Below are positions 4,409-31,797 of a stretch of 32,000 nucleotides of DNA, piece after piece. Source of the DNA: Candidatus Auribacterota bacterium (GTDB taxonomy: Bacteria > Auribacterota > UBA6266). The position numbers were made by a program, and so were the translations under genes. Location: positions 18,419 to 50,418 of the forward strand of contig JAGLRQ010000023.1 of the NCBI GenBank assembly GCA_023136205.1, read 5' to 3'. A model generated the notes under the pieces. The model saw only the letters and a list, made by a program, of their open reading frames with translations, was not told where the DNA came from and did not search any database. The first letter of the stretch is position 1, and every line of letters begins with the position of its first letter.

Positions 4409-4942
4409 CTACCGGACTCTTTTTACAGTTAATATATCTGATGCAGTGTAATAAAATGGGAGATTCACAAATTTGCAACCTTCTTTAACGGCCTTATTGG
4501 GAAGAGCAAGAACAACTATTTGAAAGTCAACCCCTATACCCGCGCCTTCTTTTTCTCCGATATAAATTCCGCCCTCAAATCTACCATCCTGAGATACCAC
4601 AGGCTTTGATTGTGCCCACCACCATTTGACGTGAGAAAGCGGCTTTACAAAAGGGACTAACTCCACTTGCTTTTCCTGCAAGGCAAGGTTAACTCTCGAA
4701 TTAGATTCAACCTGCGCCGCCGTAGTGCGAAAATCAACATTCCCGCTAATTTTCACTATATAACCGGATACCTCAGCGCCATTTTCAGGTTCTGAAAGTT
4801 TAACATTTATTATCCAATTCTTAGCCATAGAAGCGAGTTTCTCAACTCGCTTAACCCGCAGAAAAGTATAAATAGATATAATAGAGGCAAAAATACCCAG
4901 GATTAGCCCGGACGAGCTAACAATTTCCCATAATTTCATCAT
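4409..4942 (-). CDS. hypothetical protein, N-terminal TM anchor plus beta-rich C-terminal domain
   Basis: 177 aa with one N-terminal hydrophobic helix (GLILGIFASIISIYTFL). I recognise no catalytic motif. The ORF is clean, non-overlapping and co-oriented with its neighbours. Confidence 0.6.
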   Translation of the reverse strand: MMKLWEIVSSSGLILGIFASIISIYTFLRVKRVEKLASMAKNWIINVKLSEPENGAEVSGYIVKISGNVDFRTTAAQVESNSRVNLALQEKQVELVPFVKPLSHVKWWWAQSKPVVSQDGRFEGGIYIGEKEGAGIGVDFQIVVLALPNKAVKEGCKFVNLPFYYTASDILTVKRVR

Positions 4943-4995
4943 ATTTTCTATCCCTATCCCAATTTAAATAAAAACAGTCTGGTTCCAACACAATT

Positions 4996-5045
4996 AAACG
5001 GTAAATTGGTTAATTATTTAATCACCAATTAACCATTCACCGTTT
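4996..5045. repeat. 19-20 bp imperfect AT-rich inverted repeat (possible intrinsic terminator or operator between two operons)
   Basis: Left arm aaacggtaaattggttaatt (4996-5015), 11-nt spacer, right arm aattaaccattcaccgttt (5027-5045), with one indel and one mismatch. On the minus-strand RNA the hairpin is followed by AAUUGUGUU. Confidence 0.5.
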
Positions 5046-5126
5046 TAAACGACCTGTCCACAATTATTGAACGAAGTTTGAGTTTATTTTGAAAACAATT
5101 TCCATCCTTGTCCCGTTTCGCGGGAT

Positions 5127-5456
5127 TTATGAATCAAGAGGATTAAAATTATCTCTTTTTTGCTTAATTCTTAGTTCAACACTTCGATTTATCTTCTCTT
5201 TTGTTTCTTCACCTATATGCGTAAACTTCAACTTATTAATCATTTCTTTCAAATTATGTTCTAAAACCAGTTTTCCAAAAGCTTCATCAAGAAAAGAAGG
5301 AGTCACAAGTTTAACTCCCTCAAAGGACACTTCAATATCACCCTTATCCCAATTTTCAAGAACCATCTCCCTGATAGCTTGCCCACCCTTCTTTTGAGGG
5401 CTATCAATTCGCTGAGAACAGTATTCGCCAATTATTTCTTGTATTTTTATCAACAT
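5127..5456 (-). CDS. STAS-like protein (DUF4325-type)
   Basis: 109 aa. The motif GGQAIREMV ... IEVSFEGVKLVTPSFLDEAFGKL matches my memory of the DUF4325/STAS-like signature (ld-F-gV..is.SFldE.fg). AAGGA SD lies 8 nt upstream of the ATG, and the gene starts 10 nt after the stop of the upstream kinase gene. Confidence 0.7.
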   Translation of the reverse strand: MLIKIQEIIGEYCSQRIDSPQKKGGQAIREMVLENWDKGDIEVSFEGVKLVTPSFLDEAFGKLVLEHNLKEMINKLKFTHIGEETKEKINRSVELRIKQKRDNFNPLDS

Positions 5457-5466
5457 AAAACAATCC

Positions 5467-6423
5467 TTACCTAATTAACTTATAATCTTCAGGAATAGGC
5501 TCTGACTTAAAAAATATCTTACTTCCCGGCTTGCTGTTTATTGTAGCATCAATGAAAGTTCCAGGGAATTTAAAATCCAGCCTTTCAATGTTTTTTACAA
5601 CTTTTGATTTAGCCCCGCTATATGTAATTATCTCTTCATAAAACCCGTTACCGGAAATTATTATGAATTCTCCTCCAACAAAGTTAATAAACTCTCTAAA
5701 CTCTGACAATCCAACTCCGGAATTTTCACGGCCTAAAGTTCCGGTTACCCCTCTAACTAAGGCTCTTTTAATTGCAAATGTAGAATCTAATTGTATCAAA
5801 TCATTAAATTTTCTTGCTAAATGATTCTTTATGCCTATTCCCAAATCGCTTATGCAGACTCTTACTCTGTGAGTTTTTTGATATCCCTGCCCCAAAACAA
5901 AACAACCGGTTTTGGAACCACTATGCTGTTGAACATTTAAAATTAATTCAGCTAAACTTTCATGTATATGGTTACAAACATTAGAAGATAATTTTAATTC
6001 CTTTTCAATAATATTAATGAGCTGCTCTATTTCATAGTCATCAGGAAAATCAAACCGTCTAATTTTATAAATATACGTTCCATTATGCTGCGGCGCCTTG
6101 CCATTCAAATAGGATTTAACTCCAACAAACTCACAAAAGCCGCATTCTGAAAGGAAATTTGATACTTCTTTGTCTTTTGGATATATATGGGATATCTTAG
6201 ACTCTCGAACAGCCATTAAATATTTGCCCACCGCGGATAAAATATTTACACCAGAAGGATATATAAACTCTAATTCCGAAAAATTCAGACAAATTTCTTC
6301 CCCATGTTCGACACTTAACATTTCTTTTATACAATTCATTACTTGTTTAGTGTCAGCATTTAAACCTAATCCGAATCTACCAGATAACTTTAATTCCATT
6401 TTTTTGCCTTTATAACAATGCAC
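5467..6423 (-). CDS. STAS-like domain fused to SpoIIAB/RsbW-type GHKL serine-protein-kinase/ATPase domain
   Basis: 318 aa in the track (GTG start). ATG at 6399 (MELKLSG..., preceded by AAAGG) is more likely. The N-terminus has LNFSELEFIYPSGVNIL (STAS-like). The C-terminus has N-box AELILNVQQH (E-x3-N-x3-H), G1 ISDLGIGI and G2 NSGVGLSEF. There is no H-box/DHp, so this is not a histidine kinase. Confidence 0.75.
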   Translation of the reverse strand: MHCYKGKKMELKLSGRFGLGLNADTKQVMNCIKEMLSVEHGEEICLNFSELEFIYPSGVNILSAVGKYLMAVRESKISHIYPKDKEVSNFLSECGFCEFVGVKSYLNGKAPQHNGTYIYKIRRFDFPDDYEIEQLINIIEKELKLSSNVCNHIHESLAELILNVQQHSGSKTGCFVLGQGYQKTHRVRVCISDLGIGIKNHLARKFNDLIQLDSTFAIKRALVRGVTGTLGRENSGVGLSEFREFINFVGGEFIIISGNGFYEEIITYSGAKSKVVKNIERLDFKFPGTFIDATINSKPGSKIFFKSEPIPEDYKLIR

Positions 6424-6440
6424 AAATTACAATAGCCCGC

Positions 6441-6468
6441 ATTATATGCAAAGTTTTGAAAAAAACAA
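6441..6468 (-). promoter_or_regulatory. candidate sigma70-type promoter for the STAS-kinase operon
   Basis: Minus strand reads TTGTTT - 16 nt - TATAAT (TATAAT = complement of 6441-6446). This would place the TSS about 35 nt upstream of the ATG at 6399. It is a sequence match only. Confidence 0.25.
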
Positions 6469-6597
6469 ATAATTTATTATTCATTTTTACCATTCTGCTT
6501 GCACCGTAATGAACTTTGCTTTACGTCAGGGGCTTGTGCAGAATAGCAAAATCTTTTCCCACCCCTTTTCCACTTCGCGGAATTTGATGCAAATCGA

Positions 6598-6876
6598 TTA
6601 TTCTAATTCAATTCTTTCTATTTCTCCAAGTGGAATACCAATACGGTTTTTAAGTTGAATTTCCATCTCTTCTAAGAGATACTCCGGAGCTCTTAGAACA
6701 CCAATTGTATCACTTTCTCCTTTTAAAATAATCTTATTCCCTTCTTGTTTAATTTCTCCAAGTTTTTCTCCAAAATCAGGTTGTTCAAAACCACTATTCC
6801 CTTTATTGAAAAATTTTGACCCTCTATTAAAATCAAGTTCTATTTCAGGATGATTACCAATGATATATTTCTTCAT
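6598..6876 (-). CDS. hypothetical 92-aa protein
   Basis: Clean ORF, co-oriented, sitting between the HNH gene and the STAS-kinase operon. I recognise no motif. Confidence 0.5.
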   Translation of the reverse strand: MKKYIIGNHPEIELDFNRGSKFFNKGNSGFEQPDFGEKLGEIKQEGNKIILKGESDTIGVLRAPEYLLEEMEIQLKNRIGIPLGEIERIELE

Positions 6877-6942
6877 CTTTTTTCCTTTTTGAGCTTTTAC
6901 CTATTTTTTTATGTGATATTCTCAATCTCGATCCTCAATCTT

Positions 6943-7713
6943 TTATTTTTTATAGATTTTATTGTAATGATATTCAACGTACTCTTTTTTAGGGGCAGGA
7001 GGTATAAAAGTAAATATTTTATTGTGCTCTTTGTCTACCACTGCTTCACAATCTTCAGGAAATATAGCAATCTCACCGTAGTCAAATAAAACATGATGGT
7101 TAGGGCAGAGTACCAACATATTTGCTTTTATATCTGGCCCATCATGACCCAATGGTTTAATATGGTGAGTTTCTGCATATCCCTTTCCTTCTATACTTAA
7201 TCTAGTACCACATATTTGGCACTGGCAATTCCGGTCTTCTTTAACCTTATTAGATAACGCAGTATCGCGAACCGACCTTGTAATTGTAGTAGTAGTCTTC
7301 TCAGGAGGATATTCTTCCATAAATTCTGGTTTAGGTTGTTCTATAATTTCAACATAATTAGATATTTTGTTATAAGCGTCATTAATTTTTTTGTCTGAGA
7401 TAGAAAAAGTTCCATCTCGATTCTCCGTCAATATTCCTTGTCTTTGAAGTAATCCCTGTTTAGCTGCATCAATATGATGTTTCCAAATCGAATAGTTTCC
7501 TCTATTCATAGGTTTACAATCTTCATTGTTTAAGATATTTAGTGATTTAATAACATATTTTTTAAACTTAGATGATTGGTATCTTTCATTCTTGACTATC
7601 ATGTAGATTAGAATCAGGTTTTCAAAGTAATTTGTGCGTATTTGAGAATTATGATTTCTTTGCGGATTGTTGATATATTTTTCTCCCTTTGGAGTTATCT
7701 GGTAGTTAATCAT
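6943..7713 (-). CDS. HNH endonuclease with N-terminal winged-helix-like region (McrA-like / type IV restriction-like)
   Basis: 256 aa. The C-terminus has CQCQICG ... ETHHIKPLGHDGPDIKANMLVLCPNHHVLFDYG (CxxC ... HH ... N ... CPNHH zinc-finger HNH signature). The N-terminal half has wHTH-like segments (ITPKGEKYI, QGLLQRQGILTENRDGTFSIS). Confidence 0.85.
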   Translation of the reverse strand: MINYQITPKGEKYINNPQRNHNSQIRTNYFENLILIYMIVKNERYQSSKFKKYVIKSLNILNNEDCKPMNRGNYSIWKHHIDAAKQGLLQRQGILTENRDGTFSISDKKINDAYNKISNYVEIIEQPKPEFMEEYPPEKTTTTITRSVRDTALSNKVKEDRNCQCQICGTRLSIEGKGYAETHHIKPLGHDGPDIKANMLVLCPNHHVLFDYGEIAIFPEDCEAVVDKEHNKIFTFIPPAPKKEYVEYHYNKIYKK

Positions 7714-7994
7714 TTATTCACCTGTTTATTCTTGTTAGCTGTCCTATCAGAAAAATCAAGAGGAATTAACCTGTCCTTTCTGGCCCTTGCAATCTTGATT
7801 ATACCCTTCTCCTCAAGCTCCAGCAACCCCAAAGAAATTGATTCCAAATTTAGGAATTTCAAAAATGGTTTTTTCCTGTTCACGAGTTTGGATTTTACAA
7901 CAGGTATTGTAATGAAGTTGATTAAATGTGTTTGGATGCGAGATATGCGACTGAGGGTTCCGTTTAAGAAAATAGGGACAGTCCACCCGCTCAC
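7710..7994 (-). CDS. small winged-helix-like ORF overlapping the HNH gene start (ATGA); start codon and reality uncertain
   Basis: 94 aa from a GTG start. The C-terminal part FLKFLNLESISLGLLELEEKGIIKIARARKDRLIP resembles a MarR/PadR-type recognition helix plus wing. Its stop overlaps the HNH ATG (7710-7713). The GTG lies inside the loop of the hairpin at 7967-8024. Confidence 0.4.
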   Translation of the reverse strand: MSGWTVPIFLNGTLSRISRIQTHLINFITIPVVKSKLVNRKKPFLKFLNLESISLGLLELEEKGIIKIARARKDRLIPLDFSDRTANKNKQVNK

Positions 7995-8024
7995 TACGCT
8001 CGCTTGGGACAGTCCCTATTTTCT
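7967..8024 (-). terminator. probable intrinsic terminator of tRNA-Pro (long hairpin with flanking A- and U-tracts)
   Basis: agaaaatagggac (7967-7979) pairs with gtccctattttct (8012-8024). After one a/a mismatch, gtcc (7981-7984) pairs with ggac (8007-8010), leaving a 22-nt loop. On the minus-strand RNA the GC core GGGACUGUCC/GGACUGUCCC is followed by UAUUUUCUU. It lies 68 nt downstream of the tRNA 3' end. Confidence 0.5.
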
Positions 8025-8091
8025 GTAACGAAGCAGGCAAGCGCATATAAGCAACTGGAATAGATATCTGGTGTAAATTTCAAACTAAAAA

Positions 8092-8168
<77 letters not shown>

Positions 8169-29989: not shown

Positions 29990-30529
29990 CTAATTTCCGC
30001 TTGCCTGATCTATCCCAACCGTGCTGATCCATCCTCTGGGACGTTCCGGCGGGCTGTAAGCTTCCGCGACAATCGGGGCAAAATCAATATTAGCAATTAC
30101 TTCTGCGGCTAAACCCAGAGGCACTTTGGCATTCACATCATCAACAGGGGGCATATATTCGTTTTCAACCATGTACTGAACTTTTTCCTCAATACCGGGA
30201 TTGCCTTTTCCACCAGCCAGTTTATAAAGAATATTTACCATATCCCTGATAGTAATTACCCTCCCTGCTTCGGAATCCATAAAAGCATCTATTCCATATG
30301 ATGCTAAAATATTGGAAAGAACCTCAAAATACTCTTCGTCTGAAAGGCCTTCTGTTTCAGCCGGCATTTCTCCCTGTGCCGCATTAAGTATCGGAACCAT
30401 TAAAAGTTCGGCAAATTCCACATTTGTAATCGCACCCGCGTCCGGAATCGCGCTCGCGTTGGAAGGAGATAGAGAAATGCCCCATACCACAAATAAACTA
30501 ACTATTAAAATCGAAAATATTCTTTTCAT
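29990..30529 (-). CDS. hypothetical secreted protein
   Basis: 179 aa with a signal peptide MKRIFSILIVSLFVVWGISLSPSNASA. Two weak SLH-like segments (ITNVEFAELLMV, ITIRDMVNILYKLAG) are not enough for a call. Confidence 0.5.
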   Translation of the reverse strand: MKRIFSILIVSLFVVWGISLSPSNASAIPDAGAITNVEFAELLMVPILNAAQGEMPAETEGLSDEEYFEVLSNILASYGIDAFMDSEAGRVITIRDMVNILYKLAGGKGNPGIEEKVQYMVENEYMPPVDDVNAKVPLGLAAEVIANIDFAPIVAEAYSPPERPRGWISTVGIDQASGN

Positions 30530-30631
30530 TATACCACCCTCAATTTTATGTTTGTTCTTCTCTTAAATCCTAGATTAAAAAAATTATCATAAAAAGCCAA
30601 TTATTGCAAGTGTTTTTTTGGGATACCGTTT

Positions 30632-31243
30632 TTAATCATCCAAATGTAAGTCCACATAAGTGGCCATTAGTTCCCCGATCTTTCCAGGCAGCTTTACTAC
30701 AAAATAATGGTCAGTAATAACGTGCCCCATTTCATGCGCGATAACCGAATCGGATATATCACGTTCTGTTGTGTATATTGTTTTATACTTATGAATATAA
30801 AAAGATATATACCCGTCTTTTTTCCTAAAAATCCGATAATATTCATCATCTAATTCTTTTCTGTCCTTAAAAATTTTTATCTTTACATTTTTTGTCCGGG
30901 GATACATTTCAAGTAATTTCTTTACTCTGTTAAACAAAATATCCAGCCTGTCAGCCAGTTTCTCAGCAGGGGCAGACAAAGGGTCAACTCTAAAAGCTCC
31001 ATCAGTATAAAATCTTCTTCTTCTCAACTTTTTTTCGATTTTCTTCAGGTTAGCATCCGGCCGGCAGTATACCGTAAAATAATTACTTTCTATGGTAAGC
31101 CATTCGCCGCTTGACGCATCTCCACTGTCTTCAGCAAAAAGAGGTGATGAAACCGCGCAATAGAAAAAAAGGTACAGTAATGAGTATAGAATTACTGCAA
31201 ATCCCCTTCTAAATATTTTATCAATTAAAATGCCGGCTCGCAT
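30632..31243 (-). CDS. putative secreted zinc metallopeptidase (HExxH)
   Basis: 203 aa with a hydrophobic N-terminus. VIAHEMGHVITDHY carries an HExxH motif near the C-terminus. Confidence 0.6.
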   Translation of the reverse strand: MRAGILIDKIFRRGFAVILYSLLYLFFYCAVSSPLFAEDSGDASSGEWLTIESNYFTVYCRPDANLKKIEKKLRRRRFYTDGAFRVDPLSAPAEKLADRLDILFNRVKKLLEMYPRTKNVKIKIFKDRKELDDEYYRIFRKKDGYISFYIHKYKTIYTTERDISDSVIAHEMGHVITDHYFVVKLPGKIGELMATYVDLHLDD

Positions 31244-31251
31244 ATTTTACA

Positions 31252-31797
31252 CTATGTTGTATATTTTGAAAGAACAGACTTTGCCTGTTCAAGTTTATTT
31301 TTACGGTCTTCTGTTTCAGCACATGATTCCAGCTTAGCAATAGCCTGTTTTATTTTCCCCATATCTTCCTTAAGTGCTTTTGTCATTTCATTTAAGCTTT
31401 CAGCAAGATCTTTTCCTTCGTCTCTATGCCGCAAACTAAACTTTTTCCTTAGATTTCCCGAAGCCACTTCCTGAATATCTTTTTTCATACGGTAAATCGG
31501 GCCGACAACCCTGTTAGAAGCAACAAGTGTAATCGCGACAGTCGCTAATCCCAGCAGCAAAACCACAATTGTACTGCTGAGCAGAACCGCCGGTAATATA
31601 AACTCCGCGGTACTCTTCATGATGAGCCTGGAATTTTCAAACGTAGTTGTAACCGTAGATCTTGACATCGCGTAGATGATAGTTCCGGAAACAACCGCCC
31701 CCAATATGACAAGAGTACAAAATTTGATAACAAACCTTATCTGGAAATCCTTTTTGATAAAATAATTTTTTCTTTTATTTTTGTATTTGTCTTTCAT
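31252..31797 (-). CDS. HAMP-domain membrane protein without an output domain
   Basis: 181 aa with two TM helices flanking a ~35-aa loop, then VGPIYRMKKDIQEVASGNLRKKFSLRHRDEGKDLAESLNEMTKAL (HAMP signature) and a short coiled-coil tail. Confidence 0.7.
   Translation of the reverse strand: MKDKYKNKRKNYFIKKDFQIRFVIKFCTLVILGAVVSGTIIYAMSRSTVTTTFENSRLIMKSTAEFILPAVLLSSTIVVLLLGLATVAITLVASNRVVGPIYRMKKDIQEVASGNLRKKFSLRHRDEGKDLAESLNEMTKALKEDMGKIKQAIAKLESCAETEDRKNKLEQAKSVLSKYTT

Follow-up and report, generated by a model that had tools for sequence, protein, structure and literature searches.

Chambers et al. (EMBO J 2026, PMC13373217) introduced the CapK/CapS pair together with the VapK/VapS/VapC toxin-antitoxin system. 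In the former, CapK (HTH-STAS-GHKL) is switched on by single-stranded DNA (ssDNA) and phosphorylates Ser54 of CapS (STAS-wHTH), upon which phospho-CapS leaves DNA and the adjacent immune operon is de-repressed; the operons with capKS upstream of them are those of CBASS, Bub, Thoeris and others (PMC13373217). The vapKSC operon encodes VapK (STAS-GHKL), the antitoxin VapS (STAS with a short C-terminal helix) and the PIN toxin VapC, and it gives 2-log (~100-fold) protection against one phage, a defence that requires the PIN active site (PMC13373217). Each of the 443 capKS and 289 vapKSC loci has an obvious output, either a repressor domain or a PIN toxin, and the paper makes no mention of fusions, DUF4325 or effector-less pairs (PMC13373217). 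Here we analyze a pair of adjacent genes, K and S, in a 32,000-nucleotide (nt) stretch of Candidatus Auribacterota bacterium DNA (contig JAGLRQ010000023.1), referred to below as the window. As judged from its sequence, the pair almost certainly belongs to the CapK/VapK-CapS/VapS family, and it stands without an effector gene. What appears to be new is this VapK/VapS-type architecture without effector, sometimes fused into one chain and apparently a frequent form.

Architecture and family of K and S

The minus strand of the window holds two tightly coupled open reading frames (ORFs), K followed by S. The longest ORF for K (5467..6423) opens with a GTG at 6423; we place the start at the ATG at 6399, the Met from which 13 homologues align, and the same 310-residue protein is called by gene callers in other assemblies of the same organism. 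The stop codon of K (TAA, 5469-5467) and the ATG of S at 5456 are separated by a spacer of 10 nt, and the ribosome-binding site read for S overlaps this stop codon (Table 1). Upstream of K lies a promoter-like site with a perfect -10 element (TATAAT) and a -35 element that matches at 3/6 positions, for which reason the promoter scanner does not list it. A hairpin 80 nt past the stop codon of S (5048-4994; RNA fold of -24.4 kcal/mol, z -3.0) has no clear T-run and probably marks the end of the unit as a putative terminator. The promoter-like site and the downstream hairpin therefore suggest that K-S is a separate small transcription unit. The pairing itself is above chance, many unrelated genomes having kept K and S together.

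K consists of a STAS domain followed by a GHKL ATP-binding domain. The AlphaFold2 (AF2) model of K (predicted local distance difference test, pLDDT, 90.4) has an alternating beta/alpha STAS-like domain, then GHKL, and no further domain. With K alone, the N-terminal region matches the NCBIfam slr1659 superfamily (E 2e-6) and SpoIIAA (E 3.6e-3), and a profile of 57 K-family sequences matches the anti-sigma antagonist TM1442 (E 2e-6) and SpoIIAA (E 4.5e-5) over its positions 3-98. Through its GHKL part this profile also finds SpoIIAB (E 4.6e-5) as well as CheA and histidine kinases, and a Foldseek search with the model returns the GHKL folds of TopoVI-B, GyrB and SpoIIAB. Phage homologues of K exceed the Pfam cut-off for STAS, and K itself matches phrog_3364 of the PHROGs database with E 1e-40. 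Single-sequence searches of the PDB with K or S gave no matches; the family profiles did match. Some databases label K a sensor histidine kinase. K has no HisKA match in Pfam, and no DHp helical hairpin lies between STAS and GHKL in the AF2 model.

The catalytic motifs of K are an N-box (E151/N155/H159), a G1 box (D185-x-G187-x-G189) and a G2 box (N226-x-G228-x-G230) in the 310-residue numbering, and E151, N155, H159, D185, G187, N226, G228 and G230 are invariant across 27 split and fused relatives. In BLASTP alignments 'ELILNVQQHS' of the window protein pairs with 'ELIGNVRDHS' of CapK, so that N155 corresponds to the catalytic N-box Asn of CapK that was mutated in N218A (PMC13373217). The position of the phospho-serine of SpoIIAA-type proteins is occupied in the STAS domain of K by Pro48: the profile alignment with TM1442 pairs 'itPfG' of the K family against 'MDSAG', K reads 'YPSG' where SpoIIAA-type proteins read 'DSAG', and the Ser that follows Pro48 is not conserved. 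Because Pro48 occupies the acceptor position, the STAS domain of K itself is not a phospho-acceptor. The STAS domain of CapK/VapK has been proposed instead to form part of an ssDNA-binding groove, with VapK F54 and CapK W68 as the stacking residue, and the F54 aromatic is needed for VapK defence (PMC13373217). In K, F45 is invariant within the close family and aligned to W53 of a Deinococcus VapK-type kinase; it is a candidate equivalent of F54/W68, as judged by position only.

S matches Pfam PF14213 (DUF4325, 'STAS-like') with E 7.3e-14 and 51.7 bits against a cut-off of 23, and DUF4325 is the only domain that Pfam detects in it. The AF2 model (pLDDT 85.6) ends in a long C-terminal helix formed by residues 83-103. 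S54, the predicted acceptor, is invariant in alignments of 27 and of 13 sequences, fused forms included, and it aligns residue for residue with the phosphorylated Ser of CapS ('TDSS54F55'), the local motif being 'PS54F' here and 'SS54F' in CapS. One homologue of S, P0168, is 180 residues long with an extra C-terminal region of ~75 residues without obvious domain, which could be a fused partner or read-through of a small neighbour gene.

The kinship of the pair to the described systems is strongest on the Vap side. A profile of 13 S proteins matches the PDB entry 9z7o_A, 'Escherichia VapS', with E 1.4e-10, and its match to CapS (9z71_A) is weak (E 0.18). We recovered a canonical HTH-K-S-PIN operon on plasmid P5 of Deinococcus gobiensis; the S-family profile aligns with the S protein of this operon with an hhalign probability of 98% (E 1.3e-13), and window K is 27% identical to its kinase over 279 residues (E 2e-21). 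A capK-capS-Bub locus was recovered from an Enterobacter plasmid, and window K matches its CapK with E 6e-7. Because K is closer to the Deinococcus VapK-type kinase than to CapK, we assign the window pair to the VapK/VapS type.

A sequence-only reading of this DNA had described the two minus-strand ORFs with the ATG at 6399 as the likely start of K, the 10-nt spacer with its own AAGGA Shine-Dalgarno sequence for S, a STAS-fused anti-sigma-type GHKL kinase with N-box, G1 and G2 motifs and without H-box/DHp, a DUF4325 STAS-like partner and Ser54 as a candidate acceptor, and the results above bear all of these out. Its domain assignments hold: DUF4325 was confirmed, STAS is passed by the phage homologues, and the GHKL domain, on K alone below the cut-off for HATPase_c, is matched to SpoIIAB by the family profile. 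The suggestion that 'YPSG' of K is a phospho-loop look-alike fails on Pro48, and the pair is not of a hitherto unknown kind, as its family had already been described (PMC13373217).

Effector-less relatives, split and fused

When the window kinase family was used for an exhaustive profile search, 8,013 clusters at 50% identity had a representative with E <= 1e-3 and 3,657 had one with E <= 1e-10; the weaker matches may include unrelated GHKL proteins. The best 150 representatives are nearly all 280-340 residues long and matched over most of their length. In a small, non-random sample of split loci, the gene right after K encodes a DUF4325 protein in 11/11 and a PIN gene is present in 0/11, and the gene lists of the related split loci contain no PP2C/SpoIIE. 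Effector-less relatives of 42-56% identity occur in at least six unrelated genomic contexts, the closest of them adjoining pur genes, lpxD, an XRE HTH gene or a protease. Because the samples are small and partly motif-biased, 'common' is a qualitative term when applied to these forms.

Individual split loci differ widely in their surroundings. One pair comes after lpxD. A relative with 52% identity sits between purL and purQ of a purine operon (L001:9563-11543), flanked by an unknown ORF of 132 residues and by an ORF of 57 residues with a weak MazE/AbrB-like match. At L039:215-1662, an XRE HTH gene of 65 residues overlaps the start of K, reminiscent of the fused HTH of CapK. K-S lies directly 5' of a type III restriction-modification (R-M)-like pair, an N6_N4 methyltransferase and a ResIII helicase, at L045:387-6051, and directly 3' of a retron-like pair of STM3845 and reverse transcriptase at L048:2933-6322. 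These two loci, the HNH nuclease in the window and the phage slots described below speak for a defence or mobile setting.

Temperate phages of Streptococcus, Burkholderia and Gordonia also carry K-S in accessory slots, and PHROG families are available for K, S and the fusion (phrog_5816). In prophages of S. agalactiae and S. dysgalactiae, K-S is lodged as cargo at the prophage end, in a slot bordered by the lysis genes and by paratox, as in phage phiGBSVK-D (L006, 3956-5145) and six further Streptococcus prophages; this slot usually houses virulence or defence genes. In one Burkholderia and one Gordonia phage, K-S adjoins the integrase. An unannotated human-gut phage scaffold (L050; Bacteriophage sp. 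MT837343, 1420-3192) carries a complete, vapKSC-like K-S-PIN operon, whose PIN protein is 28% identical to that of the Deinococcus plasmid (E 3e-19).

Kinase and substrate are frequently joined in a single chain. A scan of one genome per species, keyed on a single motif (DxGIGIKxHL) and therefore biased towards fused forms, which are over-represented in it, yielded 29 loci, and 24 of the 26 proteins tested are single chains of ~420 residues. All 24 carry HATPase_c and a C-terminal DUF4325, and 12 also have a recognizable N-terminal STAS_2. Among IMG/VR matches, 8/11 are STAS-GHKL-DUF4325 fusions. The fused forms (L011-L036, L052-L061) are found in Paenibacillus, Calothrix, Nostoc, Veillonella, Alteromonas, Nitrospira, Acidobacteriota and IMG/VR viral contigs, are ~40% identical across phyla and lack a conserved neighbour. 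These single-chain proteins appear to be uncharacterized. They share with the window pair the same three domains in the same order, the invariant catalytic residues and the DUF4325 Ser; unlike the pair they form one polypeptide, their N-terminal STAS domain reads 'ANYQAL' where the pair has 'F-x-Y-P', and they are just 16-21% identical to the window proteins.

The module may also be part of larger arrangements. The PADLOC DrmA model PDLC02567 is matched at its positions 27-382 of 1750 by window K and by fused K-S, which suggests that some DISARM-like helicases bear a whole kinase-STAS module at their N terminus. In Calothrix and Nostoc (L016:4823-15191, L017), fused K-S is part of a run of six or seven genes that abut in the same orientation, one of them encoding 1,445 residues. 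None of the six neighbours scanned in this run matches a PADLOC model, and the run may be an undescribed operon built around the fused module. A link of fused K-S to MADS, raised by mad3/mad8 matches among neighbours, was dropped after the cyanobacterial operon had been checked and found to be free of MADS matches.

Genomic setting of the pair

The guanine-plus-cytosine (GC) content is 0.32-0.34 over positions 5000-8000, against 0.40-0.43 in the flanks, and the AT-rich stretch is bounded by tRNA-Pro (8092-8168). Genes outside ~4.4-8.2 kb are all housekeeping genes, e.g. gpsA, plsY, der, gltX, POR, dxs and xseA; three ORFs at 29990-31797 have no family match. The pair was probably acquired horizontally together with the HNH nuclease, as a ~3-kb AT-rich stretch at tRNA-Pro. 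Neither an integrase nor a repeat of the tRNA 3' end (att) was found in the window, which leaves a classical tRNA-inserted island unsupported. The AT-rich accessory setting beside a restriction-like HNH nuclease and a tRNA gene had been noted in the sequence-only reading and stands, as does the absence of a sigma factor and a PP2C phosphatase: Pfam scans of the window ORFs reveal no sigma-70 family protein, no PP2C/SpoIIE phosphatase and no PIN domain.

The nuclease upstream of the pair, which resembles type IV (modification-dependent) enzymes of restriction, matches Pfam HNH_2 (E 3.4e-9), with a weak Mrr_N match at its N terminus, and PADLOC mREase_IV (E 9e-7); its match to NCBIfam PT-DNA_restrict (E 4e-12) is below the cut-off, as are those to type IV models. 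The gene 5' of it, orf94, may form with it a separate small restriction-like unit. Between the nuclease and K lies orf92, which has no match in Pfam, NCBIfam, PADLOC or PHROGs. As conserved partners of the pair, all three were rejected, with no homologue of the nuclease, orf92 or orf94 in any of 40 K-containing loci. Because the nuclease has no homologue in these loci, its link to K-S is one of co-location only, and the earlier suggestion that the pair regulates this nuclease is not supported.

The 177-residue membrane protein encoded downstream of S, in the position that VapC would take, likewise has no homologue in the 40 K-containing loci. We considered it as an effector and discarded it, because its homologues occur without K-S and it is thus a resident gene; they lie beside an ECF sigma/anti-sigma pair or near glnA. 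At L062:43-2302, a homologue with 63% identity directly follows genes for an ECF sigma factor and a zf-HC2 anti-sigma protein, and this setting of the homologue hints that the membrane protein belongs to an envelope-stress regulon and not to the K-S module.

Other features of the stretch are its repeats and assembly boundaries. Similar short hairpins, TCCCGCGAAACGGGA and TTCCGCGAAGTGGAA, lie past the stop codons of S and orf92 (5108-5124 and 6566-6582), the second of which folds well (z -3.6); the sequence CCGCGAARYGG that they share is not above chance in its frequency in the window and was discarded as a signal. Immediately downstream of tRNA-Pro (7943-8048) there is an imperfect inverted repeat of 42 nt. 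Several independent assemblies (L041-L044, L064-L068) break off near tRNA-Pro, within a few hundred bases on the upstream side of the HNH gene, and these ends include the terminus of one 538-kb scaffold; such breaks could reflect strain variation or a boundary repeat.

Table 1. Positions of the K-S pair, its predicted functional residues and surrounding features in the window, with example fused-form loci from other genomes (aa, amino acids; strand - denotes the minus strand)
Feature	Position	Strand	Remarks
K gene	5467..6399	-	310 aa; STAS + GHKL (SpoIIAB/VapK-type) putative serine kinase
K N-terminal STAS domain	6115..6399	-	~residues 1-95; NCBIfam, family profile and AF2
K GHKL ATP-binding domain	5530..5982	-	~residues 140-290; invariant columns, family profile and Foldseek
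Codon F45 of K	6265..6267	-	conserved STAS-domain aromatic; candidate ssDNA-stacking residue
Codon P48 of K	6256..6258	-	nearly invariant Pro at SpoIIAA-type phospho-serine position
Codon N155 of K	5935..5937	-	Mg-ATP-binding Asn of N-box; invariant in 57 and in 27 sequences
S gene	5127..5456	-	109 aa; DUF4325/VapS-like STAS protein
Codon S54 of S	5295..5297	-	predicted phospho-acceptor; first turn of helix 53-59 (AF2)
AAGGA ribosome-binding site of S	5464..5468	-	overlaps K stop, 7 nt 5' of ATG; read from sequence
Promoter-like site for K-S	6441..6468	-	TTGTTT-16 nt-TATAAT; putative, read from sequence
Hairpin, 22-nt arms	4994..5048	-	inverted repeat I5; downstream of S
177-aa membrane protein	4409..4942	-	downstream of S; no defence-model match (PADLOC)
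orf92	6598..6876	-	92 aa; between HNH and K; followed by small hairpin, z -3.6
HNH_2 endonuclease	6943..7713	-	256 aa; type IV restriction-like; not shown to be part of the K-S module
orf94	7710..7994	-	94 aa; no assigned function; 5' of HNH gene, 4-nt overlap with HNH start
tRNA-Pro(GGG)	8092..8168	-	ARAGORN; Rfam 63.5 bits; bounds AT-rich stretch
Example fused-form loci	L015:7554-8813; L016:7542-8810; L024:7677-8960		

A proposed phospho-switch, its rivals and the described systems

We consider it rather probable that the window pair is an effector-less member of the CapK/VapK-CapS/VapS family that acts as an ssDNA-sensing phospho-switch, the partner of which would be encoded elsewhere or be K itself. 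What the sequences show is the structure of the two genes, their domains, the homology to VapK, VapS and CapS, the conserved catalytic and acceptor residues, an obligate coupling of K with S as neighbours or in one chain, and the lack of a conserved third gene. The steps of the switch, namely activation by ssDNA, phosphorylation of S54 and output, we infer from the characterized relatives. K would be off until ssDNA, arising from DNA damage, restriction or phage replication, binds the groove between its STAS and GHKL domains, with F45 as a candidate contact. K would then use ATP, through N155, D185 and the G1/G2 boxes, to phosphorylate S at Ser54 at the start of helix 2, and phospho-S would release its bound partner. 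To the ssDNA-activated phosphorylation of S54 by K, argued from analogy, we give an even chance. The partner held in this way is VapC in VapKSC and the protein's own dimer with its bound DNA in CapKS. S cannot act as a repressor, because it is without the wHTH domain of CapS, and with no toxin gene adjacent either, the partner of S would be either K or a protein of host or phage whose gene lies elsewhere.

A number of observations weigh against this reading. The correspondence of S54 with CapS Ser54 comes from a weak alignment (hhalign probability 38%, E 3e-4), and in comparison with VapS, whose acceptor is an absolutely conserved Ser/Thr (S48; PMC13373217), S54 ('TPSF') lies one residue later than the acceptor ('ASPFF'/'ISAFL'). 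A Foldseek search of the PDB with the model of S gave nothing significant (best E 0.31). K alone scores 19.6 bits (E 1.3e-3) against Pfam HATPase_c, the cut-off of which is 26.4, and in Foldseek topoisomerase-type GHKL ATPases outrank SpoIIAB; for these two reasons kinase activity, as opposed to plain ATPase activity, is unproven for K. Nothing encoded close to the pair qualifies as a partner of S, which leaves the output step without a neighbouring candidate. The neighbours of the fused forms are mixed and mostly housekeeping, with scattered defence genes, and a defence role of the effector-less forms is therefore not established. Lastly, no presence/absence polymorphism of the locus was seen across assemblies of the same organism: every contig from other assemblies that carries the identical 177-residue membrane protein also carries K-S, hence no island-free variant was observed.

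That the pair might instead be a self-contained two-gene toxin-antitoxin or abortive-infection module, with K itself as the effector, seems unlikely to us, albeit with some arguments in its favour. Unphosphorylated S would restrain K as a pseudo-substrate or decoy, ssDNA would lead to phosphorylation and release of S, and freed K would phosphorylate or sequester an essential protein of the host or a phage, in much the way that SpoIIAB alternates between SpoIIAA and sigma-F. The occurrence of the pair and the fusion alone, in diverse contexts and prophage slots with no conserved third gene, would be accounted for, as would the fusion of kinase and substrate, which suggests that the complex is the working unit; SpoIIAB-like partner-switching kinases, which the GHKL domain of K matches, are in addition bifunctional binders. 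Yet K has no domain beyond STAS and GHKL and no toxicity or target is known, VapK being reported as insoluble and its toxicity not reported (PMC13373217), and in VapKSC defence depends on the PIN active site (PMC13373217). A housekeeping partner switch, with K as the anti-sigma factor, S as its antagonist, and the sigma factor and phosphatase elsewhere in the genome, has the fold and motifs of SpoIIAB/SpoIIAA and the housekeeping neighbours of many fused homologues on its side. We regard it as quite improbable, given that no sigma factor or PP2C gene lies within 32 kb, that the family is patchy across phyla at ~40% identity and present in phages and IMG/VR contigs, that SpoIIAB/RsbW lack the fused non-phosphorylatable STAS of K and that the targets controlled by the characterized relatives are immune operons or a toxin and not sigma factors (PMC13373217).

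Control of the neighbouring HNH nuclease, which S would hold inactive as VapS holds VapC until K releases it on sensing a signal, would fit the position of K-S immediately downstream of this gene in the same orientation and AT-rich stretch. One relative adjoins the type III R-M-like pair, and ~20% of capKS pairs are located just downstream of R-M systems (PMC13373217). The missing homologues of the nuclease, orf92 and orf94 in the 40 K-containing loci make this very unlikely all the same; the nuclease is upstream, unlike the order in vapKSC, it is separated from K by orf92, the hairpin (z -3.6) and a 199-nt spacer with the promoter-like site, and the closest relatives have the pur genes, lpxD, XRE HTH gene or protease for neighbours instead. 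The pair lacks the third gene of vapKSC, as would a decaying vapKSC or capKS remnant that had lost its effector and its function. Such decay is extremely unlikely: both ORFs are intact with every catalytic and acceptor residue conserved, the effector-less layout recurs in the six or more unrelated contexts at 42-56% identity as well as in more distant relatives and in functional temperate phages, and the joining of kinase and substrate in one chain shows that selection acts on the two-part unit as such.

The family has so far been known solely through members with an attached output, and the window pair is a compact and intact example of the form that has none. Output-less forms dominate the sample inspected here, prophage copies and single-chain fusions included, and if they are functional, the best-understood members are a minority. 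As a tentative generalization, effector-less K-S, split or fused, might not be a broken vapKSC but form a large class of phospho-switches in its own right, which sense ssDNA, are carried around by phages and islands and have their output in trans; released K or phospho-S could, for example, act on a conserved host or phage protein, a suggestion we hold just as loosely. If an ssDNA-sensing switch without attached effector is indeed what the pair encodes, it would be an immune or stress module that has sensor and switch yet lacks an effector gene of its own, a kind not described so far, and it would raise the question of what a DNA-damage-activated kinase/STAS switch controls with nothing attached. 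Should the pair be inert or merely regulate a distant gene, it would add one more ordinary member to a family that was described recently.

In comparison with the classical partner switches, SpoIIAB-SpoIIAA and RsbW-RsbV, the window pair has the same type of GHKL serine kinase, with its E-x3-N-x3-H N-box and G1/G2 boxes, and a STAS substrate in which the acceptor Ser opens helix 2. It differs from them in that K has its own fused STAS domain with a Pro at the acceptor position, in the absence of sigma factor and PP2C, and in its mobile, phage-associated distribution. With CapK-CapS the pair shares the kinase-substrate logic, the register of the acceptor Ser and the N-box Asn, and both often adjoin restriction systems. 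K opens directly with STAS, whereas CapK (368 residues) has an extra N-terminal segment/HTH; S, with 109 residues, is without the C-terminal wHTH of the 182-residue CapS, and instead of an immune operon, the hairpin and then the gene for the 177-residue membrane protein lie 3' of S. From VapKSC the window pair departs in having no PIN/VapC gene beside it, as in the 11 related split loci, in the one-residue shift of its conserved Ser and in an identity of merely 27-30%. The likeness is otherwise close. K is, like VapK, a protein of ~300 residues made of STAS and GHKL without HTH, S is, like VapS, a DUF4325 STAS-like domain with a C-terminal helix and ~110-120 residues in length, S follows K after a tiny spacer, and the conserved aromatic F45 of K is a candidate, by its position, for the residue proposed to contact ssDNA.

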